Positions 1 through 34,600 of a stretch of DNA of 64,000 nt are shown piece after piece; the stretch's first letter is position 1, and each line of letters starts with the position of its first letter. The stretch is from Candidatus Palauibacter sp. (GTDB taxonomy: Bacteria > Gemmatimonadota > Gemmatimonadetes > Palauibacterales > Palauibacteraceae), in assembly GCF_965222475.1 (NCBI RefSeq), contig NZ_CBDCUB010000008.1, positions 619,020 through 683,019 on the forward strand, in the 5' to 3' direction. Below the pieces are notes generated by a model that made no database searches, was not told the DNA's origin, and worked only from the letters and a program-made list of their open reading frames with translations. A program made the translations under genes and the position numbers.

Positions 1-90
1 GGCGTCATACCGGAGCGCCGCGTGGACTGGTACGACCTCTCCGGCGCGGCTGACCCCGCAGTAGGCAAGCCGACGAGTGGGAGCCCGTGA
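1..90 (+). CDS. 3' end of an unidentified CDS entering from upstream of the window (partial)
   Basis: Frame is open from nt 1 to a TGA at about 88-90 (…VDWYDLSGAADPAVGKPTSGSP*). Too short to assign a family. Confidence 0.2.
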   Translation, partial: GVIPERRVDWYDLSGAADPAVGKPTSGSP

Positions 91-207
91 CGCGACCGGG
101 CGTAGCAACGCATAGCGCGGTAGACCCCTATCCGCCCGGGGGCAGGGGCGGACAGGGTCGTCGCTACGGAGCGAGACACGCCTTGGTCGGCTGTCCTGGG
201 GTTGCGC

Positions 208-2451
<2,244 letters not shown>

Positions 2452-2509
2452 CTACCCCGGAACGCTCGGGGTGCGCCGGCCACAGCTTCGGCCCGCAGGC
2501 GGCCGAACG

Positions 2510-2833
2510 TCAAGGAGCCGTCGGCGCCTCGTAGCGCTCGACCTCGATCTGGTCCTCCCGCGCCCGGGCCCGGGCCACGTCGAAGGCGGCCTGAAGTCGA
2601 ATCCAGGTTCCCGTCGTGGAGCCGAAGGCCTTCGCGAGCCGCACCGCCATGTCCGTCGAGATGCGCGCGTGGCCGTTCACGAGGTTGGAGAGCGCCTGCC
2701 GGCTCACGCCGAGCACTCGCGCGCCTTCCGTCACGCTGAGGCCGAGGGGTTCGAGGCAGGATACGCGAACCGCCTTGCCGGGGTTCGGCGGGCTCTTCAT
2801 CGGCATCGTGGTTCTCCGTTCATCCAGTGGCAA
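2510..2833 (-). CDS. higA: HigA-family antitoxin (XRE-type HTH). Probable true start is the Met at 2800, overlapping the upstream stop by ATGA.
   Basis: MKSPPNPGKAVRVSCLEPLGLSVTEGARVLGVSRQALSNLVNGHARISTDMAVRLAKAFGSTTGTWIRLQAAFD matches the HigA antidote pattern (MxxPxHPGE… followed by an HTH). The ATG at 2800 overlaps the TGA of the upstream higB remnant. Confidence 0.8.
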   Translation of the reverse strand: MPLDERRTTMPMKSPPNPGKAVRVSCLEPLGLSVTEGARVLGVSRQALSNLVNGHARISTDMAVRLAKAFGSTTGTWIRLQAAFDVARARAREDQIEVERYEAPTAP

Positions 2834-2898
2834 TCGAGGCTGCGGTCGTCGCGTTCATGGAAGCGCTTCAGCCCACGATGCCGGAAGCTCCGTATCAT
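2797..2898 (-). pseudogene. higB: degraded HigB-like (RelE/ParE superfamily killer) toxin remnant, 33 codons
   Basis: The ORF ends MIRSFRHRGLKRFHERDDRS-LDCHWMNGEPRCR*. The first 20 residues match the HigB N-terminus (MIKSFKHKGLK…), but the ~50-residue central part of a ~92-aa HigB is absent before a short C-terminal-like tail. The stop overlaps the higA start. Confidence 0.5.
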
Positions 2899-2903
2899 CG
2901 ACC

Positions 2904-2936
2904 GTAGTGTAAAGTGTCTAGCGACACTAGGCAATT
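2904..2936. promoter_or_regulatory. nested inverted repeats immediately upstream of the higB remnant; candidate higBA operator
   Basis: The sequence around 2904-2936 reads GTAGTGTAAAGTGTCTAGCGACACTAGGC. It contains AGTGTC-TAGC-GACACT (6-bp perfect arms) nested inside TAGTGT…ACACTA, just 5' of the higB start on the minus strand. Confidence 0.35.
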
Positions 2937-3029
2937 TGTCCAGGGTGTGTATTCGCTTGGGCTCGACGTCCGTACGATATTCTGCCGACGCTCGTCCTCC
3001 AGCGATCATCGGAAAACCATGGACGATTC

Positions 3030-4074
3030 ATGACCAGTGCGCCGACACGCGGGATCCCGCCGGACGGGGCCCCTTCGTACTCCCGTCGACTCCGGCCCGG
3101 GACGGATGCCGACGTGGTCCCCATGCGCGGGCGCAACGCGGGGGTGCCGCTCGACCTCGATCTGATCCGGGCGCAGGCCGCCAACCGGAGCGCGATCGAA
3201 CGCCGGGCCGCGACGCTGGGGAAGCGCCGCAGCATTAAGAAGGAGTGGCAGGCCGCCTGGCTCCTGCGCGCCGTGACGATGATCGACCTCACGACGCTCT
3301 CCGGCGACGACACCCCGGGGCGGGTGGCTCGCCTCGCCGCGAAGGCCCGCCAGCCCGTGCGTCCCGACCTGCTGCGCGCGCTGGGGGCTGAAGATCTCGG
3401 CCTGCGCGTGGCCTCCATCTGCGTCTACCCGACGATGGTGCCCGGCCGTCGTGGAAGCGCTCGCGGGCGACGACATCCCGGTGTGCGCGGTCGCCGCCGG
3501 CTTCCCTGCGGGGCTCACGCCGTTCAAGCAGCGCGTCGAGGAGATCCACGAGGCCGTCGAGGCCGGGGCGCGCGAGATCGACATCGTCATCACCCGCCGC
3601 CACGCGCTCACGGGCGACTGGGAGGCGCTGTACGACGAGGTCCGCGTCTTCCGCGAAGCGTGTGGCGGGGCGCACCTGAAGACGATCATGGCCACCGGCG
3701 AACTCGGCAGCCTGCGCAACGTCGCCCGCGCGAGCTGGACCTGCATGATGGCCGGGGCCGACTTCATCAAGACCTCGACCGGCAAGGAGAAGGTCAACGC
3801 GACGCTCCCGGTCGGACTCGTGATGGCGCGGGCGATCCGGGCCTACCGGCAGCTTTCCGGCTTCCATGTGGGCCTGAAGCCGGCCGGCGGCGTAGGGAAG
3901 GCCAGGCAGGCGCTGGAGTGGCTGATTCTCGTGAAGGAAGAACTGGGTGGAGCATGGCTCGACCGGTCGCTGTTCCGCTTCGGCGCGAGTTCGCTGCTCG
4001 CGGACATCGAACGCCAGCTGGAGCATCAGGTGACGGGGCGCTACTCCGCGTACCACCGGCACCCGCTGGGATGA
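3030..4074 (+). CDS. deoC: deoxyribose-phosphate aldolase, large DERA-like form. Reading frame is broken by an apparent +1 shift near 3440-3450 (ORF track: 3030..4109 continues as 3451..4074).
   Basis: N-terminal half (…KKEWQAAWLLRAVTMIDLTTLSGDDTPGRVARLAAKA…ICVYPTMVP) and C-terminal half (VEALAGDDIPVCAVAAGFPAGLTPFKQRVEEIHEAVEAGAREIDIVI…FIKTSTGKEK…) are both clearly DeoC/DERA but sit in different frames. An extra G in a CCCGGCC run near 3444 would account for it. The N-terminus resembles the eukaryote-type long DERA. Confidence 0.8.
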
Positions 4075-4105
4075 GACCGGCGGTGAGGGTCGGGTTGAGA
4101 GAGGG

Positions 4106-6520
4106 TTGAGGGGAATGCCGAAGATCGCGGAACTGTTCGAGACGATGGAGTACGGTCCCGCCCCGGAGGCCGCGGACGAGGCGTGGGCGTGGATCTCCGA
4201 ACGGGGTCCCCGCTTCGGCCACTACATCGGCGGGACCTGGTGCGAGCCCGCGGAGAGGGAGTTCTTCGCGACCCTCGATCCGAGCAACGAGGAGCAACTG
4301 GGGGAGGTCGCCCGGGGCGGCCCCGCCGATGTCGACCGCGCGGTGGCGGCGGCGCGGGCCGCGCAGAGTGCGTGGGAGGAGCTCGGGGGACACGGGCGGG
4401 CGCGCTATCTGTACGCGATCGCCCGCCACCTGCAGAAGCACTCCCGGCTCTTCGCCACGCTCGAGACGCTCGACAACGGGAAACCCATCCGCGAGTCACG
4501 GGACATCGACATCCCGCTCGTGGCGCGACACTTCTACCATCACGCGGGCTGGGCCCAGCTCATGGAGTCGGAACTGGCCGGCTACGAGCCGCTGGGGGTC
4601 GCGGGCCAGATCATCCCCTGGAACTTCCCGCTCCTCATGCTGGCGTGGAAGATCGCCCCCGCCCTCGCGACCGGGAACACCGTCGTCCTCAAGCCGGCCG
4701 AGTTCACCTCGCTGACCGCGCTCCGCTTCGCCGAACTCTGCGAGGAGATCGACCTGCCTCCGGGGGTCGTGAACATCGTGACCGGCGACGGCCGGACGGG
4801 CGCCGCCATCGTTGAACACCCGGACGTGGACAAGGTCGCCTTCACGGGCTCGACCGAGGTCGGGCGCATCATCCGGGAGACAACGGCGGGGACCGGCAAG
4901 AAGATCTCGCTCGAGCTGGGAGGGAAGTCGCCGTTCGTCGTGTTCGACGACGCGGATCTCGACAGCGTGGTCGAGGGCGTGGTGGACGCGATCTGGTTCA
5001 ACCAGGGCCAGGTGTGCTGCGCAGGCTCGCGCATCCTCGCGCACGAGGGGATCGCCGACGCGCTCGCCGACCGCCTGCGCGCCCGCATGGAGACGCTCCG
5101 CATGGGCGATCCGCTCGACAAGGGCGTCGACATCGGGGCGATCATCGCGCCCGTCCAGTTGCAGAAGATCGAGTCGCTGGTGGAAGAGGGGCGGGAAGAG
5201 GGCGCCACGATCTGGCAGCCGTCCTGGAGCGTCCCCCGGGACGGATGGTTCTACCCGCCGACCCTCTGCACCGACGTGTCGCCCGCGGCGCGCATCGCCC
5301 AGGTCGAAATCTTCGGTCCCGTCGTGGTGCAGATGACGTTCCGGACGCCCGCGGAGGCCGTCGCGCTCGCAAACAACACGCGCTACGGCCTCGCGGCGAG
5401 CGTCTGGACCGAGAACGTGAACCTCGCCCTCGACATCGCCTCGCAGATCAAGGCCGGGACGGTGTGGATCAACTGCACGAACGTATTCGACGCCGCGTCG
5501 GGGTTCGGCGGCTACCGCGAGAGCGGGTTCGGCCGCGAGGGCGGTCGGGAGGGGCTCCGGGAATACGTCCGCCAGCGTCCGGAGCCCGTGGAGTCGGGCC
5601 CCGGGGACGACCCGGTGTCGCTGGGTGGCGGCGATGAGGGGGACTCGGACGAGGGGGCCCCCCGCCGCGCGCCGTCGGCTGCGGTCGACCGGACGGCCAA
5701 ACTCTACATCGGGGGCCGGCAGGCCCGGCCCGACGGCGGGTACAGCCTGAAGGTCCTCGACCATCGGGGGCGCGCCGCGGGGGAAGTGGCCCGCGGGAAC
5801 CGGAAGGACGCCCGTAACGCGGTGGAGGCGGCGCTCGCTACGGAGTGGGCGCGCACGACGGCCCACCTTCGGGCACAGATCCTCTACTACGCGGGCGAAA
5901 ACCTCGATGCCCGCCGGGCGGCGTTCGAGGATCGGCTGCGCGCGCTCACCGGCTGCGACGCGGAAGCGGCGCGGCGCGAGGTCGAGGCGTCGGTGCGGCG
6001 CCTGTTCAGCTATGCTGCGTGGGCGGACAAGTGGGACGGCGCGGTCCACCGTACGCCCTTCCGCAACGTGACCCTCGCGATGCCCGAGCCTCTGGGCGTG
6101 ATGGCGGTCGTCTGCCCGCCGGAGCCCGCCCTCCTCGGTTTCATCTCCGCCGTGATTCCGCCCGTCTCGCTGGGGAACTCCGTCGTCGCCGTCGCCTCGG
6201 AGCGCTGGCCCCTGCTGGCCACCGACTTCTACCAGGTGTTGGAGACTTCGGATGTGCCGGGAGGCGTCATCAACATCCTCACGGGTCTCGAGGAGGAACT
6301 GCGGCCGACCCTCGCCGCCCACGACGCGGTGGACGGGATGTGGTATTTCGGGACGCCGGACGGGGCCGCCGATGTGGAGCGGCGTTCGGCCTCCAACCTC
6401 AAGCGCACGTGGGTGAGCGCGGGTCGGGGTCGGGACTGGTTCGGGGCCGGGGCCGAAGGGCGCGAGTTCCTCCGTTACGCCTCGCAGATCAAGAACATCT
6501 GGGTCCCTTACGGAGAATAG
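4106..6520 (+). CDS. aldehyde dehydrogenase, two-domain ALDH16-like architecture (complete N-terminal ALDH domain plus truncated C-terminal ALDH-like domain that lacks the catalytic Cys)
   Basis: 804 aa. The first ~500 aa carry ALDH motifs (…FTGSTEVGR…ELGGKSPFVVFDDADLD…FNQGQVCCAGSRI…EIFGPVV…). The last ~290 aa align to ALDH folds but without the ELGGK/QGQxC catalytic motifs. The gene sits 31 nt downstream of deoC. Confidence 0.8.
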   Translation: MRGMPKIAELFETMEYGPAPEAADEAWAWISERGPRFGHYIGGTWCEPAEREFFATLDPSNEEQLGEVARGGPADVDRAVAAARAAQSAWEELGGHGRARYLYAIARHLQKHSRLFATLETLDNGKPIRESRDIDIPLVARHFYHHAGWAQLMESELAGYEPLGVAGQIIPWNFPLLMLAWKIAPALATGNTVVLKPAEFTSLTALRFAELCEEIDLPPGVVNIVTGDGRTGAAIVEHPDVDKVAFTGSTEVGRIIRETTAGTGKKISLELGGKSPFVVFDDADLDSVVEGVVDAIWFNQGQVCCAGSRILAHEGIADALADRLRARMETLRMGDPLDKGVDIGAIIAPVQLQKIESLVEEGREEGATIWQPSWSVPRDGWFYPPTLCTDVSPAARIAQVEIFGPVVVQMTFRTPAEAVALANNTRYGLAASVWTENVNLALDIASQIKAGTVWINCTNVFDAASGFGGYRESGFGREGGREGLREYVRQRPEPVESGPGDDPVSLGGGDEGDSDEGAPRRAPSAAVDRTAKLYIGGRQARPDGGYSLKVLDHRGRAAGEVARGNRKDARNAVEAALATEWARTTAHLRAQILYYAGENLDARRAAFEDRLRALTGCDAEAARREVEASVRRLFSYAAWADKWDGAVHRTPFRNVTLAMPEPLGVMAVVCPPEPALLGFISAVIPPVSLGNSVVAVASERWPLLATDFYQVLETSDVPGGVINILTGLEEELRPTLAAHDAVDGMWYFGTPDGAADVERRSASNLKRTWVSAGRGRDWFGAGAEGREFLRYASQIKNIWVPYGE

Positions 6521-6527
6521 GAGTCGT

Positions 6528-7325
6528 CTACGGATCGGCCCAGTGATCGAGGGGGCCGCGGCCGGAGCCGAGACCCGGCGCCTGGGCGATGGCGGCGTGC
6601 GTGAAGGCGAGTCCCCGCTCGATCGCCGGCTCGAGCGCGATTCCCGAGGCCAGCCCCGCCGTGATCGCGGCCGAGAGCGTGCAGCCGGTTCCGTGGGTTT
6701 CCGTCGTCGGAACGCGGGGGGTCCGCCACACCCGCTTGCCTTCTCCGTTCCGGAACAGGTCCACCACCTCATCACCCGCCAGGTGCCCGCCCTTGACCAG
6801 CACGGCGCCCGCTCCCCGCGCGAGGATGGCCGCGGCCGCCGCGGACATGTCGGCTTCGGTCCTGACGGGTTGTCCCGCGAGGATCTCGGCCTCGGGCAGG
6901 TTGGGCGTGACGAGAGCGGCGAGGGGCAGGAGTTCTTCCAGGATGGCATCGACGGCGGCCGGGTAGAGGAGCCGGTCGCCGCTCGTGGCCACCATCACCG
7001 GGTCGACGACCAGCGGTGCTTCGAAACCGTGCAGGCCAGCGACGACGGCCCGCACGATGTCCGCGTTGGCGAGCATCCCCGTCTTCGCGGCCGCCGGTGG
7101 CAGATCCGCCCGCACCGATTCGATCTGGCGCCGTACGATCGGCGGGTCGAGCGCCTGTACCGCCTGAACCCCGATCGTGTTCTGCGCGGTCACGGCAGTC
7201 ACCGCACTCGTCCCGAACACGCCGAAGGTGTGGAAGGTCTTGAGATCGGCCTGGATCCCGGCTCCGCCCCCCGAGTCGCTCCCCGCGATCGTGAGTGCGG
7301 TGGCCCGCGCTGGCTTCTTCGGCAT
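6528..7325 (-). CDS. thiD: hydroxymethylpyrimidine/phosphomethylpyrimidine kinase
   Basis: 265 aa from [31 protein letters not shown]…[14 protein letters not shown]…[11 protein letters not shown]…VKGGHL…[14 protein letters not shown]. This is a canonical ThiD (ribokinase-like fold). The start was chosen at the Met preceding the GSDSGGGAG glycine-rich region. Confidence 0.85.
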
Positions 7326-7412
7326 CACGTATCCGCTCCGCTTGGTTCGCTCCGGTGCGCCGGTTCCGCCGGCGCGATGACACTGCGTTGTGCCTCGCCG
7401 TAAAATAAGGGT

Positions 7413-8180
7413 ATGCCGACGCGCGCGGAGATTAAGGCCTGGCGGTCGCTGCACCGCGGAAAGGGACGCCGGGAAACCGGGTGTTTCCTGGCGGAGGGGC
7501 GGCGGCTCGTCGGCGAGATGCTCGAGTGGCCGGGCCGCACGGTTGCGGTGCTGCACGCCGATGCGGCGGGCGGCGAACCGGCACTGGAGGTGCTGCTCGC
7601 GCACGCGGTGACGCGGGGTGTACGTACGGAAGCGGTGCCCGAAGCGATCATCCGGACGCTGGCCGATGCCGCCACGCCCCAGCCCATTCTCGCGATCGGC
7701 GAGGTGCCGGCGTACAGCTGGGATGACGTTGGCGGCGGCGCGATCGTGCTTCTCGACGGCGTGCAGGATCCGGGCAATGTCGGCACTCTCGTGCGCACCG
7801 CGCTCGCGCTCGGGGCCGCCGCCGTGATCGGCGTCGGGGAGGCCGCCGATCCCTGGGGGCCGAAGGCGCTGCGGGCCTCGGCGGGAGCGTCGTTCCGCGG
7901 CCCCGTCTTCCGGACGGACACCCGGGATGCCGTGGAGCGGCTGGCCGGGCGCGGGATCCCGATCTGGGTCGCCGCGGCAGGCGCCCCGCCGCTCGAGCGT
8001 CCACCGTCCGGGTCGGTTGCTCTCGCGCTGGGGAGCGAGGCGCGCGGCGTCTCGGCTCCCCTCCTCGCCGCCGCCCACCGCGTCGTCTCCCTGCCGCTCG
8101 CCCGGGGTGTGGAATCGCTGAACGTGGCCTCGGCGGGCGCCATCCTGCTCGATCGCATGCTGAGGCGGACGCCCGATTGA
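7413..8180 (+). CDS. TrmH/SpoU-family RNA 2'-O-ribose methyltransferase
   Basis: SPOUT motifs [34 protein letters not shown] and [20 protein letters not shown]. Confidence 0.8.
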
Positions 8181-8941
8181 CTGAAGCCGTGACCACGGGC
8201 GTGGCCGCACTGCTCGGCGCGGTGGCCGGCTCTTTCCTCAATGTGTGCATCGCGCGCATGCCCGCCGGGGACAGCGTCCTGCGCCCAGGCAGCCGTTGCC
8301 CGGCGTGCCACGCGACGATCCGCTGGCGCGACAACCTCCCCGTCCTCTCCTGGATCCTGCTGCGGGCGCGCTGTCGCGACTGCGGCGGCCGCATCTCCTG
8401 GCGCTACCCCGCGATCGAACTTGCAACGGCCCTCGCCTGGGGTGGCATGGTCTGGATGTACGGCACATCCGTCACCGCCCTGACGGGTGCGGTCCTGTTC
8501 ACGCTCCTCCTCGCGATCGCGGTCATCGACGCGCGCCACTACGTGATCCCCGATCCCCTCTCGCTCGGCGGGTGCGCCGCGGGCCTCGCCCTCTCGGCGC
8601 TTCCGGGGTCGACGCCGCCGCTCGGGGCGATCGCGGGCGCGGTGCTCGGGTTCGGACTTCTCTACGTCGTGGCGTGGCTGGGCGAGAAGGCGTTCCGGAA
8701 GCCGGCGCTCGGAGGCGGCGACGTGAAGATGATGGCGATGGTGGGGGCGTTCCTCGGCCCCGGCGGCGCACTCCTCACGATCTTCCTGGGGTCCCTCGCC
8801 GGGTCCCTCGCCTTCGGTCCCGTCTCACTCAGGACGGGAAAGCCCGTGCCCTTCGGGACCTTCCTCGCGCTCGGCGCGGCGGTGGCATTCCTGTTCGGCG
8901 GCGTTCTCTTCGATTGGTATCTGCGCCTGTCGACACCTTGA
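8177..8941 (+). CDS. pilD: type IV prepilin leader peptidase / N-methyltransferase (A24 family)
   Basis: N-terminal TM helix, tetracysteine zinc motif ([33 protein letters not shown]) and catalytic Asp regions (…[11 protein letters not shown]…[16 protein letters not shown]…). Start overlaps the trmH-family stop. Confidence 0.85.
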
Positions 8942-9023
8942 GACGGTCGCGCGCGGAACACCTGTGTCCCTTGCTTGGGCGCTCTCTTCCCCGCACACCT
9001 GCTCGGCCGGCTGGTCTACTCGC

Positions 9024-9848
9024 TCATCGGCCAGGCCGACGCGGGGGGTAGCCGCGGGGAATGCTGCCCATGAGGCCACACAGGTCATGGTAGGTGGCGG
9101 AGTCCACCGGCAGCGTCCGCAGCGCCGCGTCCGTCGAGGCCCCGTCAAACTTGGCTTCACCGTAGATGATGTCGTTGACCACGCACCAGGTCGATGCCTT
9201 CCCGGCCTCCCGGGATGCCGGCGGGCCGGCTGCCTCCATTGCGGCGAGGAGGTAATCCAGGCCCCGGCCCTCGGGATCCGCCAGATAGATCGCGTATAGG
9301 TCTGAGCTGGCGCGCGGTCCGCTGGGCATGGATTCGTCAAAGTCCGCTGCTTGGGAGCGGGTGTAGATGGCGGCGATCGGATCGTTCGTCTCGTCCCCTG
9401 CCAAGCCGACCATGTGCCTCTCGTACAACCCCACGAGAAGGTCGAACGCGGGCTCGTATGGGACCCCCTCCTCCGGCACGACTGCCCGAATCAACGCAGA
9501 ACGCGCATCGAACCGAACCCCAAAAGGGTATCCCGTGTCCGCCGCCAGGCGGACCAGCGACTGCGCGAGCGCGTCCAGCTCGGCTTGGGGCCGGGGCTCG
9601 AAAAGCTGCGTAAGCACGGCCGCGACCGGCGCGGCGGGGGAAGCCTCCGGATCGCGGCGTTCGACGAGCTGTCGGAGCGCGGTCTCCGGCGTCGGGATGC
9701 GCAGCTCTCCGCCCTCGTCCAGAACCATGGCCCACCGCTGGGCCCATGACTGAGGCCTGGCGTCCCCATCTCGCGCCTGTGCCGCAGCGGGCCACGGCGC
9801 CAAGGCGCTTTGGAGCACTGCCACAACCAACATCGCATCTCGCCTCAT
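9024..9848 (-). CDS. secreted hypothetical protein, module component B1 (paralog of 11107..12093)
   Basis: 274 aa with N-terminal signal-peptide-like segment (MRRDAMLVVAVLQSALAPWPAAAQA). Shares motifs with B2 (…IYLADPEGRGLDYLLAAMEA… versus …VYSADPEGRGRDYVRALFEA…). No family recognised. Confidence 0.5.
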   Translation of the reverse strand: MRRDAMLVVAVLQSALAPWPAAAQARDGDARPQSWAQRWAMVLDEGGELRIPTPETALRQLVERRDPEASPAAPVAAVLTQLFEPRPQAELDALAQSLVRLAADTGYPFGVRFDARSALIRAVVPEEGVPYEPAFDLLVGLYERHMVGLAGDETNDPIAAIYTRSQAADFDESMPSGPRASSDLYAIYLADPEGRGLDYLLAAMEAAGPPASREAGKASTWCVVNDIIYGEAKFDGASTDAALRTLPVDSATYHDLCGLMGSIPRGYPPRRPGR

Positions 9849-9894
9849 GCCTCAGCTCCTCGTCTACTGCAGAGAATCCCTCGCGCCGGACCCG

Positions 9895-11094
9895 TCACGG
9901 GCACGCCGTCCCGGTGTGGCCCAGAGCCGTCGGTCTGTCGAGCACCCAGCCTCCCGCCCATCGGTAGTGCCAGAACGGCGCGGCTGCGGTCGCCTCAGAC
10001 ACGTTGAAATCCATCCCTTCGCGCATAGCTCTCTCCACTTCGGTCAAGAGCATTCTAGCTTGCTCCGTGGCGGTTTCGAGTAACCCTTCGAGCCTTTCCA
10101 ACTTGTCTCGAATATTCTGGGAGGCCCGGCAGCTCTCATACCTCGATGCGTGCTGCTCCTCGTGCTGCTTAACGGGATCATGGAACGACGAACGGGCCGT
10201 CCCGGTGCCACATTCCTCGTTCACCTCGTAAACCGTGGCCGGATCGCCCAGTTGCGCGTGGTTCCCGCAATGCTGCCGGAGTTCGTGCGCCGTCACGACG
10301 CCAGTAGTCTCATAAGCCCAGGGTCGTTCCGGGTTGGTCGGCTTAAGATCCGGATGTATGTAGAACTGCGCGACTATGGTCTCCGCCGGCCAGGAGATGT
10401 AGCGCGTGCCCTGCCACGGTCCCGTTCCCGAGCCCGCAACCAGCCCCGGGATGTTGACGGCGAACCGCCCCCATTCGTCACTTGCCCAAGATTCTGTGTG
10501 CGGAGTAGCGTACACAGGAATGGTACCTGCAGCAGGAAAGGCCCACATCCCTGCCCCCACCTCGACGATCCCGGTCATCGTCGTGTCGGCGACTTCCGGT
10601 CCCGAGATGCTGACGGTCATGCTGATCGTGCTCGTGGCCGTTCCCTCCCAACTGGTGAAGTCCTCTTCGGTATCGGCGGGGCGCGCCACGCCCGCTCCCG
10701 TCACCCAGGCGTAGTTGAGGTCGGAGAGCGTCACGGCGGTGTCGGTCGTCGTCACGTAGCAACCCCCGGTTGAGCCACGCGGCGGTGAGTTGCAGTTCAA
10801 GTTGAACGCCACCACCCTGGATCCCTCGTCGCCGTCGTCGCCGCCCTTGGGGTTGGTCCCGCCGAGACCGATGGGGAAGCCCGTGCCCTTCGGGACCTTC
10901 CTCGCCCTCGGCGCGATCATGGCATTCCTATTCGGGGACACCCTCTTCGATTGGTATCTGCGCCTCCGGATTCCGATGGCCAATCCGTCGTAAGATTCCG
11001 GGTCTCTCTCCGGCGTCCCGGATCTGGAGGCGAAGATGCAGCCAGCTAAGGCGCGTGACGGGGCGCTGGTCCCCAATAGGGTCTGGGCCCGCAA
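9895..11094 (-). CDS. HExxH-motif protein A1, 5'-truncated paralog of 12074..13951. The annotated first ~75 codons are antisense to a pilD 3' fragment and are probably not native.
   Basis: Shares the IGLGGTNPKGGDDGDEGSRV…RGSTGGC.VTTTDTAVTL…TST.SMTVSISGPEVADTTMTGIVEV core and a C-terminal FHDPVKQHEEQH (HExxH) with A2. Homology to A2 begins only at about 10870. Upstream of that the ORF is complementary to a copy of the pilD 3' end. Confidence 0.45.
   Translation of the reverse strand: MRAQTLLGTSAPSRALAGCIFASRSGTPERDPESYDGLAIGIRRRRYQSKRVSPNRNAMIAPRARKVPKGTGFPIGLGGTNPKGGDDGDEGSRVVAFNLNCNSPPRGSTGGCYVTTTDTAVTLSDLNYAWVTGAGVARPADTEEDFTSWEGTATSTISMTVSISGPEVADTTMTGIVEVGAGMWAFPAAGTIPVYATPHTESWASDEWGRFAVNIPGLVAGSGTGPWQGTRYISWPAETIVAQFYIHPDLKPTNPERPWAYETTGVVTAHELRQHCGNHAQLGDPATVYEVNEECGTGTARSSFHDPVKQHEEQHASRYESCRASQNIRDKLERLEGLLETATEQARMLLTEVERAMREGMDFNVSEATAAAPFWHYRWAGGWVLDRPTALGHTGTACP
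10868..10975 (+). repeat. ~108-bp copy of the pilD 3' end (about 90% identical to 8830-8940); tandem-duplication junction
   Basis: Encodes [31 protein letters not shown], near-identical to the PilD C-terminus at 8830-8940, but lies inside the 5' part of the minus-strand A1 ORF. Confidence 0.6.
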
Positions 11095-11106
11095 CCAAGC
11101 CGCATC

Positions 11107-12093
11107 TTACATGATCCCAGGATAACAGAGCTCCTTGAACACCTCGGGATCGGGCGGATCGGCGACGTCGTCGGGCCTGCGGGGGCGGGTGGCTCCGGGC
11201 TCGTACATGAGGAACCGTCCCGCCTCGCACCACACGGACGGGTTGTAGGGTTTCGGGCACTCCGGCAGCGCGAGCCACGCCTCATGCCCCTCCTTGGAGC
11301 TAGCCGTGATCTCCCCATCCGGGCCCATGACCAACGGGACCAACCCCCGGCGGCACACTGGGGGCGGAAGCGGCTCGCTCGCCTCGAACAGGGCGCGCAC
11401 GTAGTCCCGGCCCCGCCCCTCGGGGTCAGCCGAGTAAACACTGATGAGGGCCCCAACCAGTCCGGAAGCGGCGAGCGCGGGGCCCGTGCGATAAGCCTCG
11501 CGGAACGGATCGTCCCCGCCGCCGGCCAGCAGCCGGGCCGCGCGCGTATCGTAAACGCGCACCAGCGCGTCGAACGCCTCCGGGTAGGGCGTGCCCCGCA
11601 GGTAGGATGCGTGGCGCTGCGCCGTCGACAGCGTGGCGTAGGCCTTGGATCGGACCAGGTACTGGTCGGACGAGTACTCCGCGTCGATCAGCAGAATGTC
11701 GGCGAGGGCGTCCACCAGCGCCTCCTGCTCCGCCTGCGTGCGGGGACCGTGCTCCTCCCTCAGCAACGCGACGGCGGGCGAGTTGTCCGGGTCCGGATCG
11801 TTCAGCAGGCTCCAATCGCCGCGTAGCGCCCGCAGCGCCTCGTCCGTGGTCGGCACCCGCCAGCCTCCTCCCTCGTCCAGCACGAGCCCCGGCGCCCACG
11901 CCCGCCCCCGCTCCCCGGGCTCCCGCTCCTGCGCCGGTAACGCTTCCGGCGCGAGAAGCCCGGTCCACGCGACCGCCGCCAATACTCTCCAAATCGATCC
12001 CGTAGCCATGTGCCCTCCTCCTCCGAATGGTCCGCTGGTCGCCGGCGCCGAAGTGCACTGCGGAGACTTCGGACTACCGGCAGGGACCCGCAC
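11107..12093 (-). CDS. secreted hypothetical protein, module component B2 (paralog of 9024..9848). Probable start is the internal Met at about 12009.
   Basis: A signal-peptide-like MATGSIWRVLAAVAWTGLLAPEALPAQ follows an unlikely 28-aa leader. Paralogous motifs shared with B1. Confidence 0.5.
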   Translation of the reverse strand: MRVPAGSPKSPQCTSAPATSGPFGGGGHMATGSIWRVLAAVAWTGLLAPEALPAQEREPGERGRAWAPGLVLDEGGGWRVPTTDEALRALRGDWSLLNDPDPDNSPAVALLREEHGPRTQAEQEALVDALADILLIDAEYSSDQYLVRSKAYATLSTAQRHASYLRGTPYPEAFDALVRVYDTRAARLLAGGGDDPFREAYRTGPALAASGLVGALISVYSADPEGRGRDYVRALFEASEPLPPPVCRRGLVPLVMGPDGEITASSKEGHEAWLALPECPKPYNPSVWCEAGRFLMYEPGATRPRRPDDVADPPDPEVFKELCYPGIM

Positions 12094-13951
12094 GGTGCCC
12101 TTGGATGGGGAGCGTGAGGTACACCCAGGTTGTCCCGCGGCCGCCGCGCTGCGTGGGGGTTACGCCCGGCGTATAGTCCCAATAATCCCACACGAGCTGG
12201 CTGGTGAAGCCCGCAACGGCGCCGCCAGTGGAGCCCAAGACCTTGTCCCTATAATACGTGCGCCATGCACGCTCCAAGTCCTGTTTCAACGTCTGCCGGT
12301 CGCCGCTTACGAGGGTCTCCATGTCCGCTTGGTCCCCTCTCGCCGCCTGGGCGCTAAGGCAGGCGGCGATGGCGTCTTGGTGGTCATTCTCGTGCCCGAT
12401 CAAATCCCTCTCGAACGCTGTCAGGTTCGGCCCCGAACCGCAATTCGTGTTCACCGTGACGAGGTTCGCGCGGGCGGGCAGGGCAGTGGCATGGCAATGC
12501 TGGTTTGCGGGGAGCAGGTTCGCGCCCGGGTATCCACGGTCCTGCGGGTCCAGGTCGTTGTGGACTACGATCGTGGCCGGAATCGTCAGGCTGCCCACGC
12601 CATGCTGGCCGGCCCACGGACCGCTACCGTCAAAGACGGCGTCGTCGGTGAGCGCCGACGTGTGTGTGGGGGGTTCGTACATGCCGAACGTGCCGTCCGT
12701 CCAGGTACCCGTATACGAGACTGAGGAACTCAGCGACACCACCGACGAGGTGCGTGCAGTCACCTCGACGATCCCGGTCATCGTCGTGTCGGCGACTTCC
12801 GGTCCCGAGATGCTGACCGTCATGCTGAGCGTGCTCGTGGCTCTTCCCTCCCACCTGGTGTAGTCCGTTCGGCCCCCTATGGGGCGCGACACGCCCGCTC
12901 CGGTCCGCCAGGCATAGGTAAGGTCGGCAAGCGTCACGGCCGTGTCGGTCGTCGTAACGCGGCAACCTCCGGTCGAGCCACGGCTCGGTGACGAGCAGTT
13001 CAATCGGAACGCCGCGACCCTGGATCCCTCGTCGCCGTCGTCGCCGCCCTTGGGGTTGGTCCCGCCGAGACCGATGCGGCCCGTGCCCGGATTCCGGGGA
13101 GGGATAAGGGTCCCCCATTCCGTGCCCTCGCCGACGAAGTTTAGCACGCAGTCGTCTTCAAATACATCATAGTCCAACCCGACCGGGCACGTCCGTCCCG
13201 TCGTCACGAGGATCTCCTTCATCTGGGCAGGTTCGCACTCCGTTTCGGGTTCGGGGTCGTAGCAGCCCTCGCGCTGCGCCGCGAGCAATGATCGGGGCGC
13301 GGCCCAGCCCGACGCCAGCCTCCAGAGCTCAGCCCACGGTCCGCCCCCCGACGGTCGCGCCGAGGCCCACACCTTGTCGGGCAGCGGAATCCCCACGTCC
13401 TTGAGAATCGCCTTCACGCTCCCGGTCGCCTCCTGACTCGCGCGCTCGGTCCCGGGGAGCAGGCAAACGGCCAGAACGGCCACCCGCTCGGGAAGCACCT
13501 CCTTGCCACCGTCGGACTTGGGCCGGCTCACGGTAACCAGCACCTTGTATTGCTGGCCCCACACCTCGTCGGTGTCACCCTTCGCCTCGGGGCTGAACTC
13601 CAGCACGTACTTCCGGGAGACGTAGCTTCCCGTGGCGGTCCCGAAGTAGAACTCGCACCCCGGCCCGCCGATCCCCTGGATGACCGTCTGCCACGACGGC
13701 AGACTGTCCACATCGGCGCTGAGCCCGGCCTGCGACACGACCGGTGCCCGGGCCGACGCATCCCCACCGGTGGGGGCGGGCTCCCAAAAAAAGTCGGAGC
13801 ACCCCAGGAGTCCTGCCCCCGATGCTCCCGCCACAAGGAATGCCTGCCCGATCCGCAGCCTGAAACGCGGAGGCGCTTCTCGTGGCACTGAAAGTCGGGA
13901 GGGACGACGGCGAAACGACGAGGAGAGACCAGCGCGCGGCCACCTGAACAT
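12074..13951 (-). CDS. HExxH-motif putative lipoprotein A2 (full-length paralog of A1); possible zinc-metallopeptidase-like secreted protein
   Basis: 625 aa. N-terminal hydrophobic stretch ends in LLGC (lipobox-like). Conserved core shared with A1. C-terminal …CGSGPNLTAFERDLIGHENDHQDAIAAC carries an HExxH motif aligned with HEEQH of A1. Confidence 0.5.
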   Translation of the reverse strand: MFRWPRAGLSSSFRRRPSRLSVPREAPPRFRLRIGQAFLVAGASGAGLLGCSDFFWEPAPTGGDASARAPVVSQAGLSADVDSLPSWQTVIQGIGGPGCEFYFGTATGSYVSRKYVLEFSPEAKGDTDEVWGQQYKVLVTVSRPKSDGGKEVLPERVAVLAVCLLPGTERASQEATGSVKAILKDVGIPLPDKVWASARPSGGGPWAELWRLASGWAAPRSLLAAQREGCYDPEPETECEPAQMKEILVTTGRTCPVGLDYDVFEDDCVLNFVGEGTEWGTLIPPRNPGTGRIGLGGTNPKGGDDGDEGSRVAAFRLNCSSPSRGSTGGCRVTTTDTAVTLADLTYAWRTGAGVSRPIGGRTDYTRWEGRATSTLSMTVSISGPEVADTTMTGIVEVTARTSSVVSLSSSVSYTGTWTDGTFGMYEPPTHTSALTDDAVFDGSGPWAGQHGVGSLTIPATIVVHNDLDPQDRGYPGANLLPANQHCHATALPARANLVTVNTNCGSGPNLTAFERDLIGHENDHQDAIAACLSAQAARGDQADMETLVSGDRQTLKQDLERAWRTYYRDKVLGSTGGAVAGFTSQLVWDYWDYTPGVTPTQRGGRGTTWVYLTLPIQGHRAGPCR

Positions 13952-13967: not shown

Positions 13968-14101
13968 AAGGGGACTCACGCCCGGGACTCACGCCCGGGA
14001 CTCACGCCCGGGACTCACGCCCGGGACTCACGCCCGGGACTCACGCCCGGGACTCACGCCCGGGACTCACGCCCGGGACTCACGCCCGGGACTCACGCCC
14101 G
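13968..14101. repeat. tandem array of about 10 copies of a 13-bp unit (CCCGGGACTCACG), 17 bp upstream of the A2 start codon
   Basis: A perfect head-to-tail …gggactcacg cccgggactcacg cccgggactcacg… runs across about 134 bp. Each unit contains a CCCGGG palindrome. The unit length is not a multiple of 3. Confidence 0.85.
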
Positions 14102-14208
14102 AAGATGCTGCGACAGGCCCCCCTCAAACAAGGGAACGGACAGGGGACGACCGGAGCGGGATCGATGAGAAGACCAGGTGGGCCGGGATCCGCCGGACGG
14201 ATGCCGCG

Positions 14209-14905
14209 CTAATCGCGGCGGATCCGGGCTCGCGTCACCTGCGTGTCGGTGCTCGCCACGACCTGGATCCGCACATCGCCGTGCTCGACCACCTCTCCCG
14301 CCTCGGGCACCCGGCCCAGCTCGCCCAGAAGGAAGCCGTTCAGCGACCGGTGCTCGGCCACGGGGAACGACGTGTCGAAAAAGTCGTTGATCTCCCGCAG
14401 TTCGGCGCCGCCATCCACCGCGATCTCGTCCCGCCGCAGCTGGATGATGGGCTCCGGCGGTACATCCGTTTCGTCGACAATGTCGCCGACCAGCTCCTCG
14501 AGGATGTCCTCGAGCGTCACGAGCCCGTCGAGCCCGCCGTGTTCATCCACCACGAGCCCCATGTGCACGCGCCGCGCGCGGAACTGCTCGAGCAGTTCGA
14601 TGAGAATGATCGTGTCCGGCACGAAGTAGGGTTCGCGGGCGAAGCTGGAGAGCGTCAGGTTCCGCCGGCCGCCGAGAAGCGCTTGGTACGCCTCGGTGCG
14701 GTACAGCACGCCGGTCACGTCATCGAGCGACTCGCCGTACACCGGGATCCGGCTGAAGCGCACGTCCGCCAGTGCCTCCGCGATGTCTCCGAGCCTGCGC
14801 GAATCCTCCCAGCCAGGATGTCGACGCGGGGCGTCATGATCTCCCGGGCACGCAGACGGTCGAGAGTGAACACCCGGTCGATGAACTGCCGTTCTCAACG
14901 TGTGC
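14209..14905 (-). pseudogene. truncated, frameshifted paralog of corC (CBS-pair plus CorC_HlyC C-terminal two-thirds only, no DUF21 membrane domain)
   Basis: About 80% nt identity to 15644-16330 of the intact corC (…RIPVYGESLDDVTGVLYRTEAY…VDEHGGLDGLVT…EDILEE…). Homology starts abruptly at about 14905, and a 1-nt deletion near 14810 shifts the frame relative to corC. Confidence 0.6.
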
Positions 14906-15607
14906 ATCTCCCGCATGCCCGCCGGCGAGAGCGTGGTCCGCCCGCGCAGCCGCTGCCCGGCCTGCGGCGCGACGGTCCGCTGGTTCGACAACATCCCCGT
15001 CGTCTCCTGGGTGCTCCTGCGCGCGAGGTGCCGCGACTGTGCGGCCCGGATCTCCTGGCGCTACCCGGCGGTCGAACTCGCCACGCTGGGCATCTGGGTC
15101 GGCATGGCGTGGCAGTACGGGGCGTCGGCCGCCGCCCTCGGCGGCGCGGTCCTGTTCACGCTGCTGCTCGGGATCGCGGTCACCGACGCCTTGCACTACG
15201 TGATCCCCGATCCGCTCTCCCTCGGCGGGCTCGCGTCGGGGCTCGCCGCGTCGCTCCTGCCGGGCCTCACGACGCCGCTCGCCGCGGCCGGCGGCGCGGC
15301 ATTCGGCTTCGGGCTCCTGTTCGTCGTGGGACGCCTCGGCGAGAAGGTTCTCGGAAAACCCGCCCTCGGCGGAGGCGACGTGAAGCTGATCGCGATGGTC
15401 GGGGCCTTCCTGGGCCCGGCCGGCGTCCTCCTCACCATCTTCCTGGGTGCGCTGGCCGGCTCCGTCGTCTTCGGGCCGGTCTCGCTCCGGACCGGGAAGC
15501 CGGTTCCGTTCGGGACGTTCCTCGCTCTCGGCGCCGCCGTCTCGTTCCTGTTCGGCGATGCGCTGATCGACGCCTATCTGCGCCTCGCCACGTCCGCGAG
15601 CGGGTGA
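14900..15607 (+). CDS. prepilin peptidase paralog lacking the N-terminal about 20 residues (first TM helix); possibly non-functional
   Basis: [51 protein letters not shown]… is about 75% identical to PilD at 8177-8941. Homology begins at …FLNVCI… at about 14905, exactly where the corC-derived sequence ends. Confidence 0.6.
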   Translation: MCISRMPAGESVVRPRSRCPACGATVRWFDNIPVVSWVLLRARCRDCAARISWRYPAVELATLGIWVGMAWQYGASAAALGGAVLFTLLLGIAVTDALHYVIPDPLSLGGLASGLAASLLPGLTTPLAAAGGAAFGFGLLFVVGRLGEKVLGKPALGGGDVKLIAMVGAFLGPAGVLLTIFLGALAGSVVFGPVSLRTGKPVPFGTFLALGAAVSFLFGDALIDAYLRLATSASG

Positions 15608-32691: not shown

Positions 32692-33189
32692 TCACCAGCG
32701 CCCCGCGCCTCCGAGGTCGACCCCGGCCGGGACCTCCCGGATCGTTGTCGCGGAGCCGAACATGAACCAGCAGGGCTGGCCGCCGCCGCATCGGACTTCC
32801 CTGACTGCCACCGGGCGGTTCGCCGCGCGGCTCAACACTCCACCGAGCAATGCGGCCGCGAAGTGACAGCACGCCCCGCCGGGAAGTTCCTCCGGCGCCT
32901 CAACGGAGTCGCGCCACGCAAGGGCGCCCGACCGTTGGCTTACGGGCCGGTACGATACCGAGCCGAGTCCGGCCCGGCGGAGGGCCGCATCGAGCCGGGA
33001 CCAGAACTCGGACGCCGGCAGCGCCGCGGGCGCCTCGGCCAACGTCGCGAGAAGACCTCCGCCCGCGCGGTCGCCGGCTTCACGCACCGCCTCGATCCCC
33101 GGATCGCCGCGCTCGACGCAACGGCGGAAGAGGGTCGAGAGGGCGGACCTGGGGAGGCTTACGACGGGATCCTGCGTGGGGGAATTCAT
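32692..33189 (-). CDS. hypothetical protein, possible V4R-domain protein
   Basis: C-terminal …GACCHFAAALLGGVLSRAANRPVAVREVRCGGGQPCWFMF resembles the Cys/Gly pattern of V4R domains. Start chosen at the internal Met; weak call. Confidence 0.3.
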   Translation of the reverse strand: MNSPTQDPVVSLPRSALSTLFRRCVERGDPGIEAVREAGDRAGGGLLATLAEAPAALPASEFWSRLDAALRRAGLGSVSYRPVSQRSGALAWRDSVEAPEELPGGACCHFAAALLGGVLSRAANRPVAVREVRCGGGQPCWFMFGSATTIREVPAGVDLGGAGRW

Positions 33190-34600
33190 CGGCCGGAAAG
33201 CTAGACAGGCGATCGAAGGGGGACAAGGTTGGCCCGCACGCGTGGTCTGCGCGAAGCTCCCGAACCCGGATGATGCCTTGCTCCTGACGCCACTCATCGA
33301 GAAGAAACGCGACGGCGGCCGCCTCACGCCCGACGAGCTGGAGACACTCCTTCGGGCGTACATGGAGGGCGCGTTCGCGGACTACCAGATGTCCGCCTTC
33401 CTCATGGCGGCGTTCATCCGCAGCCTCGATCCCGGGGAACTGTCCGTGCTCACGCGGGCGATCATCGAATCGGGCACAAGGCTCGACTTCGCGGACGATG
33501 GCCCGCCGCCCGTCGACAAGCACTCGACGGGCGGCGTCGGCGACAAGGTCTCGCTCGTACTCGCGCCCCTCCTGGCGGAAGCGGGGCTTCGGGTTCCGAT
33601 GATGTCGGGTCGCGGGCTGGGGCACACGGGCGGGACGCTGGACAAGCTCGAGTCGATCCCGGGATTCCAGGTCTCCATCGAACTCGACCGCTTCCGGACC
33701 ATCCTCGACGAGGTCGGCTGCGCGATGATCGGGCAGACGAGGGAGATCGCGCCGCTCGACGGGCGGCTCTACGCCCTGCGGGACGTCACCGGGACGGTGC
33801 CCTCGCCGACCCTCATCGCGGCCTCCATCGTCTCGAAGAAGGTCGCCGAGGGGATCGAAGCGCTGGTGCTCGACGTGAAGTTTGGGCGCGGTGCGTTCAT
33901 GACCGACGAGAGACGGGCCCGGGGACTGGCCCGGACGATGGTCGACCTCGCCGCCGCCGAGGGGGTTCGGGCCACGGCGCTGCTGACGGCCATGGATGCG
34001 CCCCTCGGCTATACGATCGGCAACGCGCTCGAGGTGGCGGAAGCGATCGAGACGCTGAGGGGCGGCGGGCCCGCCGATCTGCGCGAGGTCACGCTCGCCC
34101 TCGGCGCCGAATTGCTCGTCTCCACCGGCCGTGCCGCCGATGTCGAGGCTGCCGCGGCGGGGCTCGGCACCATACTGGAGGGTGGCGCGGCGCTGGGGCG
34201 GCTCGCGCGGCTCATCGAGGCGCAGGGCGGCGACCCGCGCGTGGCGGACGACCCGGGCCGGCTCCCGTCGGCGCCGGTGCGGGTGCCCTTCCGCTCGCCG
34301 GCTCCCGGCTGGCTCGACATCGACGCGCGCCGCGTGGGGCTCGCCTCGGTCGAACTGGGCGCGGGCCGCCGGCGCGTTGCGGACAGGATCGATCCGACGG
34401 TCGGCTTCGAGTTGCACCGCTTGGCGGGCGATCACGTGTCCGAAGGCGAGGTCCTGGTCACGATCCACGCGGCCGATTCGTCGAGCGCCGCCACCGCCGG
34501 GCAGCGTCTGATCGAAGCCATTGAACTCTCGGAGGAACCGCTCCCCCCGCGGAGGCTGATCCTGGACCGGGTCGACGAAGCTGGCCGGGCGGACGGCTGA
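33176..34600 (+). CDS. deoA: thymidine / pyrimidine-nucleoside phosphorylase (true start probably downstream, e.g. the TTG at about 33275)
   Basis: …LIEKKRDGGRLTPDELETLLRAYMEGAFADYQMSAFLMAAFIRSLD…DKHSTGGVGDKVSLVLAPLLAEAGLRVPMMSGRGLGHTGGTLDKLESIPGF…. The conserved N-terminus starts about 33 codons after the ORF-track Met. Confidence 0.85.
   Translation: MGEFIGRKARQAIEGGQGWPARVVCAKLPNPDDALLLTPLIEKKRDGGRLTPDELETLLRAYMEGAFADYQMSAFLMAAFIRSLDPGELSVLTRAIIESGTRLDFADDGPPPVDKHSTGGVGDKVSLVLAPLLAEAGLRVPMMSGRGLGHTGGTLDKLESIPGFQVSIELDRFRTILDEVGCAMIGQTREIAPLDGRLYALRDVTGTVPSPTLIAASIVSKKVAEGIEALVLDVKFGRGAFMTDERRARGLARTMVDLAAAEGVRATALLTAMDAPLGYTIGNALEVAEAIETLRGGGPADLREVTLALGAELLVSTGRAADVEAAAAGLGTILEGGAALGRLARLIEAQGGDPRVADDPGRLPSAPVRVPFRSPAPGWLDIDARRVGLASVELGAGRRRVADRIDPTVGFELHRLAGDHVSEGEVLVTIHAADSSSAATAGQRLIEAIELSEEPLPPRRLILDRVDEAGRADG

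Follow-up and report, generated by a model that had tools for sequence, protein, structure and literature searches.

A conserved pairing of long-form deoxyribose-phosphate aldolase with ALDH16, viewed from a Candidatus Palauibacter locus

Introduction

What do ALDH16 proteins do in the bacteria that encode them? Within the aldehyde dehydrogenases (ALDHs), ALDH16 is an orphan branch with a solved structure and no known physiological role, substrate or pathway (PMC12041015, PMC9351246). The question is raised by a 64,000-nucleotide stretch of DNA from Candidatus Palauibacter sp. (Gemmatimonadota; NCBI RefSeq assembly GCF_965222475.1, contig NZ_CBDCUB010000008.1, positions 619,020 to 683,019 of the forward strand), referred to throughout as the window. 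Here deoC, which encodes a member of the deoxyribose-phosphate aldolase (DERA) family, is followed directly by an ALDH16 gene on the same strand, and deoC itself is split between two reading frames in the assembled sequence. The DERA and ALDH16 families are both known and the locus is typical of each; their association is the new part. The literature searched yielded no paper that connects ALDH16 with DERA, deo operons or fusions, apart from incidental co-mentions in proteomics work, Liu & Tanner 2019 being known to us through reviews only.

Conservation of the deoC-ALDH16 pairing

The proximity of the two genes is far from peculiar to the window. Of 80 surveyed genomes encoding ALDH16 relatives, 78 carry enough upstream sequence, and a long-form deoC lies immediately upstream of the ALDH16 gene on the same strand in 69 of these 78 loci, with two more having it within 5 kb. 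The median distance between the deoC and ALDH16 alignments is 25 nucleotides (nt). Adjacent loci are found in Gemmatimonadota (31; 2 not evaluable), Bacteroidota (18 of 18), Acidobacteriota (5 of 6), Myxococcota (4 of 4), Alphaproteobacteria (3 of 3) and Chloroflexota (4 of 11), as well as in SAR324 and Verrucomicrobiota. The pairing is thus conserved across at least eight phyla, and the compact deoC-ALDH unit proposed in an earlier reading of this DNA made from its letters alone (the original prediction) holds up well in relatives.

Clustering of neighboring open reading frames (ORFs) places many of these pairs among genes of nucleoside breakdown. The gene order in Bacteroidota is thymidine phosphorylase, deoC, ALDH16, DeoD, while Alphaproteobacteria have the purine nucleoside phosphorylase PNP, deoC, ALDH16 and then thymidine phosphorylase. 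Altogether, a thymidine phosphorylase gene accompanies the pair at 17 loci, DeoD at 12 and PNP at 7. A deo-type arrangement, with deoC beside phosphorylase or phosphopentomutase genes, therefore exists in relatives and is absent from the window, where, as in close relatives, the pair stands alone.

A related arrangement was observed in P0432 (803 amino acids, aa; NCBI contig of 30.7 kb), in which an actinobacteria-like deoC is followed by a single-domain ALDH close to the ALDH16 catalytic domain. The junction is garbled and probably reflects read-through. The sequence hints that deoC may also be paired with an ALDH that has no ALDH16 C-terminal domain.

Natural fusions of DERA and ALDH16

The association extends to single polypeptides. 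The ALDH16-specific C-terminal domain was searched against 1.84 billion cluster representatives, giving 269 matches at E<=1e-30. P0252 (1142 aa) consists of a long-form DERA (residues 14-325, 50% identical to that of the window) followed by ALDH16 (residues 342-1137, 49% identical), and when used as a query it recovered the further full-length fusions P0403, P0404, P0405, P0430 and P0408. There are therefore at least six full-length DERA-ALDH16 fusions, all with a domain order that matches the gene order of the operons, and the DERA N-terminal extension described below is present in every fusion inspected. P0404 and P0405 reside in alphaproteobacterial genomes with a shared synteny of CobT, HisS, an unnamed gene, the fusion, a second unnamed gene, SufE and ClpX; because each was found on three contigs with conserved synteny, they are not accidents of assembly.

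The catalytic Asn/Glu/Cys triad of the ALDH is kept in five of the six fusions. The sixth, P0408 (1082 aa, L091), represents a cluster of six member sequences and retains the DERA catalytic motifs while its ALDH16 part has lost the Asn, Glu and Cys alike. Among bacteria it corresponds to the ALDH16 pseudoenzyme of animals. Primate, snake, mollusc and horseshoe-crab ALDH16 members were also recovered with the C-terminal-domain query, and all animal proteins examined (primate, snake, Lymnaea, Limulus) have lost the catalytic Cys.

Other candidate fusions were set aside. In P0429 (labelled Artemia) and P0433-P0435 the junction is garbled, as is typical when a frameshift lets reading run on from one gene into its neighbor; P0411, P0427 and P0431 contain internal deletions, and P0251 and P0265 are vertebrate gene-model artefacts.

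The transcript contig that encodes P0252, L087, is 3.8 kb long with a single ORF and a third-codon-position GC content of 95%. Its 5' end carries CAGTTTCTGTACTTTATTG, positions 1-22 reading CTACAGTTTCTGTACTTTATTG, in what we take, as a lead only, to be a resemblance to the 3' end of the kinetoplastid spliced leader. This suggests that a euglenozoan eukaryote carries the P0252 fusion.

The window locus and its two products

In the window, the same-strand pair sits between a divergent higA with a higB remnant and a convergent thiD-like kinase gene. Its features are as follows.

3030-4074, + strand: deoC, whole, split by one surplus base at about 3440
3030..3439, + strand: 5' part of deoC in frame 0, residues 1-137, translated from the ATG at 3030
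within 3030..3439, + strand: unconserved residues 1-28, then the conserved extension (~32-83), then the first barrel strands, from alignment and model
3440, + strand: surplus G that moves deoC into frame +1, from alignment with the related contig L081 and a multi-strain alignment
3441..4074, + strand: 3' part of deoC in frame +1, residues 138-347 and the TGA stop codon (4072-4074), holding the three catalytic residues
3580-3582, + strand: Asp184, aligned with E. coli DeoC D102
3679-3681, + strand: Schiff-base Lys217, aligned with E. coli DeoC K167
3769-3771, + strand: Lys247, aligned with E. coli DeoC K201
4075..4114, + strand: intergenic spacer, read from the sequence
4099-4105, + strand: purine-rich GAGAGGG, a putative Shine-Dalgarno-like element 9 nt ahead of the ATG at 4115
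4115..5590, + strand: catalytic ALDH domain of ALDH16, from Pfam Aldedh and alignments with 6MVR and human ALDH2
4622-4624, 4913-4915 and 5015-5017, + strand: ALDH16 Asn170, Glu267 and Cys301, from the 6MVR and ALDH2 alignments
5591..5683, + strand: low-complexity Gly/Asp/Pro-rich linker between the ALDH16 domains, from translation; gapped in the 6MVR alignment
5684..6520, + strand: ALDH16-specific C-terminal domain with the stop codon at 6518-6520, from the Aldedh profile, the 6MVR alignment and the cluster-representative search

As assembled, the deoC frame is interrupted by the extra base at 3440. All three catalytic residues are encoded downstream of the shift, so neither fragment could be active in this form. 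Three-frame translation regains a single ORF of 347 aa, reading ...ICVYPTMVPAVVEALAGDD..., when any one base at 3440-3445 is removed. Downstream, the 31-nt gap and 804-aa ORF given in the original prediction correspond to a TTG start at 4106; the alternative ATG at 4115, which is the start called in relatives, yields 801 aa and a gap of 40 nt.

The repaired deoC product passes the TIGR00126 equivalog (141.8 bits against a cutoff of 117.3) and matches Pfam DeoC/LacD (PF01791, E=8.6e-20). Its D184, K217 and K247, the counterparts of the Schiff-base lysine and the proton-relay Lys and Asp of E. coli DeoC, are invariant in 47 long-form sequences. The gene product is accordingly classified as a class I aldolase of the DERA family with its catalytic residues kept and is predicted to have cleavage activity. 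It was earlier recognized as a long form with an animal-like N-terminal region, and indeed mammalian DERA is 61% identical to it over all 318 residues, the alignment beginning at M32 of the window protein and including the extension. This extension (~45 residues, residues ~32-83; KKEWQAAWLL...) is common to bacterial long forms and animal DERA, and N36, G38, L41, R66, R67, W73, Q74 and W77 within it are invariant from bacteria to vertebrates.

An AlphaFold2 model of P0001, which is 92% identical to the window DERA, served as a structural proxy (predicted local distance difference test, pLDDT, 85). Residues 1-28 are disordered in the model (pLDDT <50), followed by a confident helical extension at residues 31-83 ahead of the TIM barrel, with pLDDT values of 87-97 for residues 31-60. 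The best matches to the fold in the PDB are the DERAs of Shewanella, E. coli and Colwellia, at target-normalised TM-scores of 0.90-0.92. These are E. coli-type enzymes, and no solved structure covers the long-form N-terminal extension. The long form set against the E. coli type in the original prediction is real, although the two are hardly opposites: among solved structures, E. coli DeoC comes nearest to the core (E=4e-40; TM 0.9), and the long form is an E. coli-type DeoC core to which a conserved N-terminal extension of ~45 residues has been joined.

The ALDH16 (cd07111) assignment is equally secure. The window protein aligns end to end with Loktanella ALDH16 (PDB 6MVR_A; query 7-803, chain 4-766, 797 residues, E=6.7e-284). 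Its N-terminal ALDH domain is complete, covering positions 1-458 of 461 in the Pfam Aldedh profile (E=6.4e-190 for the whole protein). The C-terminal domain of ~270 residues aligns with 6MVR residues 506-766, a separate second stretch of alignment spanning 506-733, and the C-terminal 306 residues match positions 16-236 of the 461 in the Aldedh profile and no others. By this alignment, the C-terminal domain is a degenerate copy of the NAD-binding half from which the catalytic subdomain is absent. The complete and the degenerate domain had both been described before; what changes is the account of the missing Cys and Glu, which were not lost by substitution but went with the catalytic subdomain as a whole.

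In the N-terminal domain N170, E267 and C301 are kept, as in the active bacterial ALDH16 subgroup and unlike the vertebrate pseudoenzyme, with Cys301 aligning to the residue mutated from Cys to Ala in 6MVU. The window ALDH16 is thus predicted to be catalytically competent, and its catalytic domain resembles ALDH2 in sequence. After ALDH16 itself, the closest solved relatives of this domain are mitochondrial ALDH2, ALDH1B1 and yeast Ald4 (E about 1e-119). ALDH2 and ALDH1B1 are mitochondrial acetaldehyde dehydrogenases. The residue preceding the catalytic Cys is a Val and the channel 'neck' residue a Phe, both of them hydrophobic. The Loktanella enzyme acts as an oxidant of hydrophobic aldehydes, hexanal among them (PMC12041015).

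Phylogenetic placement of the DERA

The similarity to animal DERA had led to the gene being called eukaryote-type, with phylogeny proposed as the check. Searches returned at least 8000 candidate homologues, all at E<=1e-20; the best 120 are long forms of about 310-450 aa, and those with a source name are all bacterial. In a neighbor-joining tree with 200 bootstraps, in which the eukaryotes sampled were vertebrates, the window DERA clusters with Ca. Palauibacter in 100% of bootstraps and is never the specific sister of the vertebrates. The vertebrate DERAs are monophyletic in 100% of bootstraps, and their placement among the bacterial long forms varies. Pairwise identities tell the same story, at 57-61% to vertebrates and 58-70% to other bacterial phyla. 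Based on these comparisons, the window DERA is a member of a very large, overwhelmingly bacterial long-form group that forms one subfamily with animal DERA. A special eukaryotic affinity is refuted and the earlier label is a misnomer.

A recent transfer of the gene from a eukaryote into this bacterium is accordingly hard to credit at all. It could appeal to the 61% identity to mammalian DERA, N-terminal extension included. Against it stand the grouping with Ca. Palauibacter in every bootstrap, a similarity to long forms of other bacterial phyla that is as great or greater, the thousands of homologues with only bacterial names among the best 120, and the location of the gene in a bacterial operon conserved across phyla.

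Origin of the frameshift

Whether deoC is intact in the organism can be judged from closely related strains. An exact-protein look-up of the window ALDH16 identified a 1.01-Mb contig (ENA ERZ25067264), L081, which is 99.85% identical to window positions 1-12520 (12,520 aligned bases) with 18 substitutions and one indel. That sole indel is the extra G. The original prediction of a single surplus base stands, and only its position needs correcting: by comparison with L081 it is the G at 3440, GGT[G]CCCGGCC, 4 nt from the proposed ~3444 and in the same CCCGGCC context. In L081 deoC is intact and encodes the same 347-aa protein as the repaired window gene, the four substitutions within deoC being all synonymous, and the ALDH16 proteins are identical. 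Relatives at 90-94% identity all have an intact deoC of about 342-347 aa.

A multi-strain alignment shows where the extra base could have come from. Another related strain, L084, reads ...GTCTACCCGATGATGGTGCCCGCC, and L081 reads GTCCCGGCC. The window shares the L084 haplotype at 3392, 3425 and 3428 and in the string GTGCCC, and matches L081 from GGCCGTCGTGGAAGCG (GGCC) onward. The switch, from GTGCCCGCC to GTCCCGGCC, falls exactly at the surplus G, which sits at the junction between the L084-like haplotype (...GTCTACCCGA.GATGGTGCCC) and the L081 haplotype (GGCCGTCGTGGAAGCG...). When the two haplotypes are gapped as GT-CCCGGCC and GTGCCCG-CC, a column-wise majority gives GTGCCCGGCC, which is the window sequence. 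Since in-register recombination adds no base whereas a column-wise consensus does, an indel at a haplotype switch favors an artefact. The frameshift is therefore best regarded as very probably a product of assembly or polishing, a mosaic consensus of merged strain haplotypes, rather than a sign of gene decay.

A similar shift was observed in a second metagenome-assembled genome (MAG). In the Gemmatimonadales long-read MAG L045 (positions 5330-5400), deoC shifts by +1 between CVYHAYVA and TAVQAL in the context GCG-C-ACC, which may be the same class of G/C wobble-site consensus error.

The contrary view, that deoC is a freshly inactivated pseudogene with ALDH16 left alone or also decaying, is rather improbable. 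The extra base is, after all, present in the sequence as given, some local gene decay is evident from the neighboring higB, of which 21 codons are left in the window as well as in L081, and the L045 shift lies at the same alignment position. A very recent genuine frameshift would also be compatible with the assembled sequences, and to that extent weighs against an intact deoC. However, deoC contains no second inactivating change, the four synonymous substitutions being its only other differences from L081. ALDH16 does not differ from its counterpart in the intact strain, and the surplus base coincides with the haplotype switch to the nucleotide; L045, for its part, is a long-read MAG, and its shift has a G/C wobble-site signature of the same kind.

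Programmed +1 frameshifting at CCC-G was considered and is ruled out, since the extra base is missing from the 99.85%-identical strain and from every close relative; it is further disfavored by the L045 shift, which occurs at the same alignment position without a slippery sequence. More generally, merged strain haplotypes can produce a false frameshift at a G/C wobble site, which is a lesson for annotation.

Proposed function and alternative explanations

The pair would constitute an operon of two genes serving the final steps of deoxynucleoside breakdown in a Ca. Palauibacter-group bacterium, a sponge-type member of the Gemmatimonadota. DERA would cleave deoxyribose-5-phosphate to glyceraldehyde-3-phosphate (G3P) and acetaldehyde, and a co-transcribed ALDH16 would oxidise the toxic acetaldehyde to acetate with NAD(P)+. 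The two enzymes would form a dedicated, widely conserved pair, probably physically associated, and deoC would be intact in the organism, the frameshift having arisen where co-existing strain haplotypes were merged. Taken as a whole, this deoxyribose-5-phosphate catabolic module of DERA and ALDH16, with an intact deoC, is the explanation we consider likely. Co-transcription, physical association and acetaldehyde as the physiological ALDH16 substrate are what we infer, the last from the ALDH2-like nearest relatives, the hydrophobic channel residues, the activity of the Loktanella enzyme on hydrophobic aldehydes and the gene context.

Several observations weigh against this explanation. None of deoA, deoB and deoD adjoins the pair in the window, no DeoD or PNP homologue was found within its 64 kb, and the thymidine phosphorylase gene lies 29 kb away at 33176-34600, unlinked as originally noted. 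A promoter and terminator consensus scan of positions 2400-7000 gave nothing, though such a scan is uninformative for this phylum. No deoC lies near five of the 11 Chloroflexota ALDH16 loci or near one Acidobacteriota locus, so the pairing is not obligatory. In the seven deoC-less loci, no alternative partner was seen among neighbors read by eye and with no family search run; these are unrelated housekeeping or transport genes (oxidoreductase, transporter, tRNA synthetase, protease and similar). The sole reported ALDH16 activity is on medium-chain aldehydes (PMC12041015). Finally, a dead ALDH16 part in P0408 and dead ALDH16 proteins in animals imply that aldehyde oxidation is not the whole reason for the association.

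The last point is the most thought-provoking, as the dead fusion and the dead animal proteins suggest that the association of DERA and ALDH16 is more than detoxification. ALDH16 could be mainly a structural or regulatory partner of long-form DERA, in a complex possibly formed through the N-terminal extension, with oxidation secondary or dispensable. P0408, with its DERA motifs kept and its ALDH16 triad gone, would fit such a role, as would the vertebrates sampled, which retain long-form DERA while the animal ALDH16 proteins examined are catalytically dead. So would the extension, which is conserved from bacteria to vertebrates, confidently modelled and never missing from an inspected fusion. 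Yet the full triad persists in the window enzyme, in five of six fusions and in all bacterial operon partners inspected, evidently under purifying selection, and one dead fusion cluster might represent a gene in decay; a primarily structural role is thus unlikely, if worth keeping in mind. Alternatively, the substrate of ALDH16 could be another aldehyde of the pathway, namely G3P (as for GAPN), open-chain deoxyribose-5-phosphate or deoxyribose, or the aldol products of DERA running in the synthetic direction. ALDH16 has no known physiological substrate (PMC12041015), and in vitro it is reported to prefer hexanal to acetaldehyde. DERA, moreover, has two aldehyde products and one aldehyde substrate to offer. 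But the Val before the catalytic Cys and the Phe at the channel neck are hydrophobic, as in ALDH2, and there is no Arg or other basic residue at what we take to be the phosphate-binding Arg positions of GAPN. G3P has a glycolytic sink, whereas acetaldehyde has none. A different pathway aldehyde is therefore improbable, and acetaldehyde oxidation within a DERA-ALDH16 module remains the preferred explanation.

Other features of the window

Upstream of the pair, the intact antitoxin gene higA (2510-2833, - strand) is accompanied by a higB toxin remnant (2797-2912, - strand), whose 21 first codons match the 92-aa HigB of relatives (L083, L084) before the frame is lost. L081 is identical to the window across the remnant and carries no higB gene call. 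From these sequences, the remnant looks like genuine decay.

Further downstream, positions 11442-11761 differ from L081 by 14 substitutions in 320 nt, all inside one gene of a paralogous family and with none in the flanking 8 kb, which suggests strain mixing or paralog cross-talk in the assembly. A perfect tandem array of about 10 copies of the 13-nt unit GGGACTCACGCCC occupies 13971-14113. The last 96 nt of a prepilin-peptidase gene (8833-8928) recur downstream at 10870-10965 and 15490-15585, with 86% and 77% identity. Two further repeat pairs are 8237-8536 with 14894-15193 and 10558-10876 with 12761-13079. A second peptidase-like copy lies 6.6 kb away, and tandem paralogous genes of about 2.2 kb separate the copies. 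The repeats of the peptidase-gene 3' end look like cassette duplication or insertion.

Implications and comparison with known systems

Pairing across phyla, location in nucleoside-catabolic operons and repeated fusion put ALDH16 in deoxyribose-5-phosphate catabolism, with long-form DERA as its partner. The function of ALDH16 thereby becomes testable, and DERA is worth examining in studies of human ALDH16A1. A more speculative idea, to be held tentatively at best, is that ALDH16 evolved in obligate physical partnership with long-form DERA, with docking through the N-terminal extension, and that this partnership outlived ALDH16 catalysis in P0408 and in animals. Human ALDH16A1 would then act on DERA, or together with it, when deoxynucleosides are broken down. 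If true, this would offer a mechanistic route from the gout and urate association of ALDH16A1 to purine nucleoside catabolism, and eukaryotes would have obtained both genes at once, their source being a deoC-ALDH16 module or fusion of bacterial origin.

One close point of reference is Loktanella ALDH16 (6MVR/6MVS/6MVT/6MVU; Liu & Tanner 2019, as given in PMC12041015 and PMC8160307). It has in common with the window protein the two-domain architecture, the Asn/Glu/Cys triad, the Phe neck and the C-terminal pseudo-Rossmann domain. The window protein differs in its longer acidic, Gly-rich inter-domain linker, and while the reviews give no pathway or gene context for the Loktanella enzyme, the window gene directly follows deoC. 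Vertebrate ALDH16A1, a pseudoenzyme whose gene is linked to gout/urate susceptibility (PMC9351246, PMC12041015), is of the same family and has the same two-domain architecture. The window protein keeps its triad, whereas the catalytic Cys and other triad residues are missing from the animal proteins, whose genes have no operon link to DERA.

Human and vertebrate DERA share with the window DERA the 61% identity over the whole vertebrate protein, the extension and the catalytic Asp/Lys/Lys. The window gene adds ~30 unconserved N-terminal residues that are predicted to be disordered, and it is phylogenetically bacterial and operon-linked to ALDH16, whereas the vertebrate gene stands alone. E. coli DeoC likewise shares the TIGR00126 family, the fold (TM 0.9) and the catalytic residues, but lacks the N-terminal extension and is only ~41% identical. 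The deoCABD operon finds a parallel in Bacteroidota and Alphaproteobacteria, where deoA-like and deoD-like phosphorylase genes lie on either side of deoC-ALDH16, and not in the window, whose phosphorylase genes are not adjacent. To our knowledge, the E. coli deo operon contains no aldehyde dehydrogenase.

Pairing an aldolase with a dedicated acetaldehyde dehydrogenase has precedents in DmpFG and BphIJ, in which an acetaldehyde-producing aldolase works with a dedicated CoA-acylating acetaldehyde dehydrogenase to prevent release of the toxic aldehyde. Their folds are unrelated to those of DERA and ALDH16 and their dehydrogenases are CoA-acylating; channelling has been demonstrated for them, and for DERA-ALDH16 it is hypothesised from the natural fusions. 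Another is the SPU bacterial microcompartment, the core of which combines a DERA bearing an N-terminal extension with an aldehyde dehydrogenase (PMC11585597). In both systems, an acetaldehyde-releasing DERA is genetically coupled to a dedicated aldehyde dehydrogenase. The SPU dehydrogenase, however, makes acetyl-CoA and is encapsulated in a shell (PMC11585597), whereas the window pair comes without shell genes and its partner is ALDH16, whose closest characterised relatives are non-acylating ALDHs.

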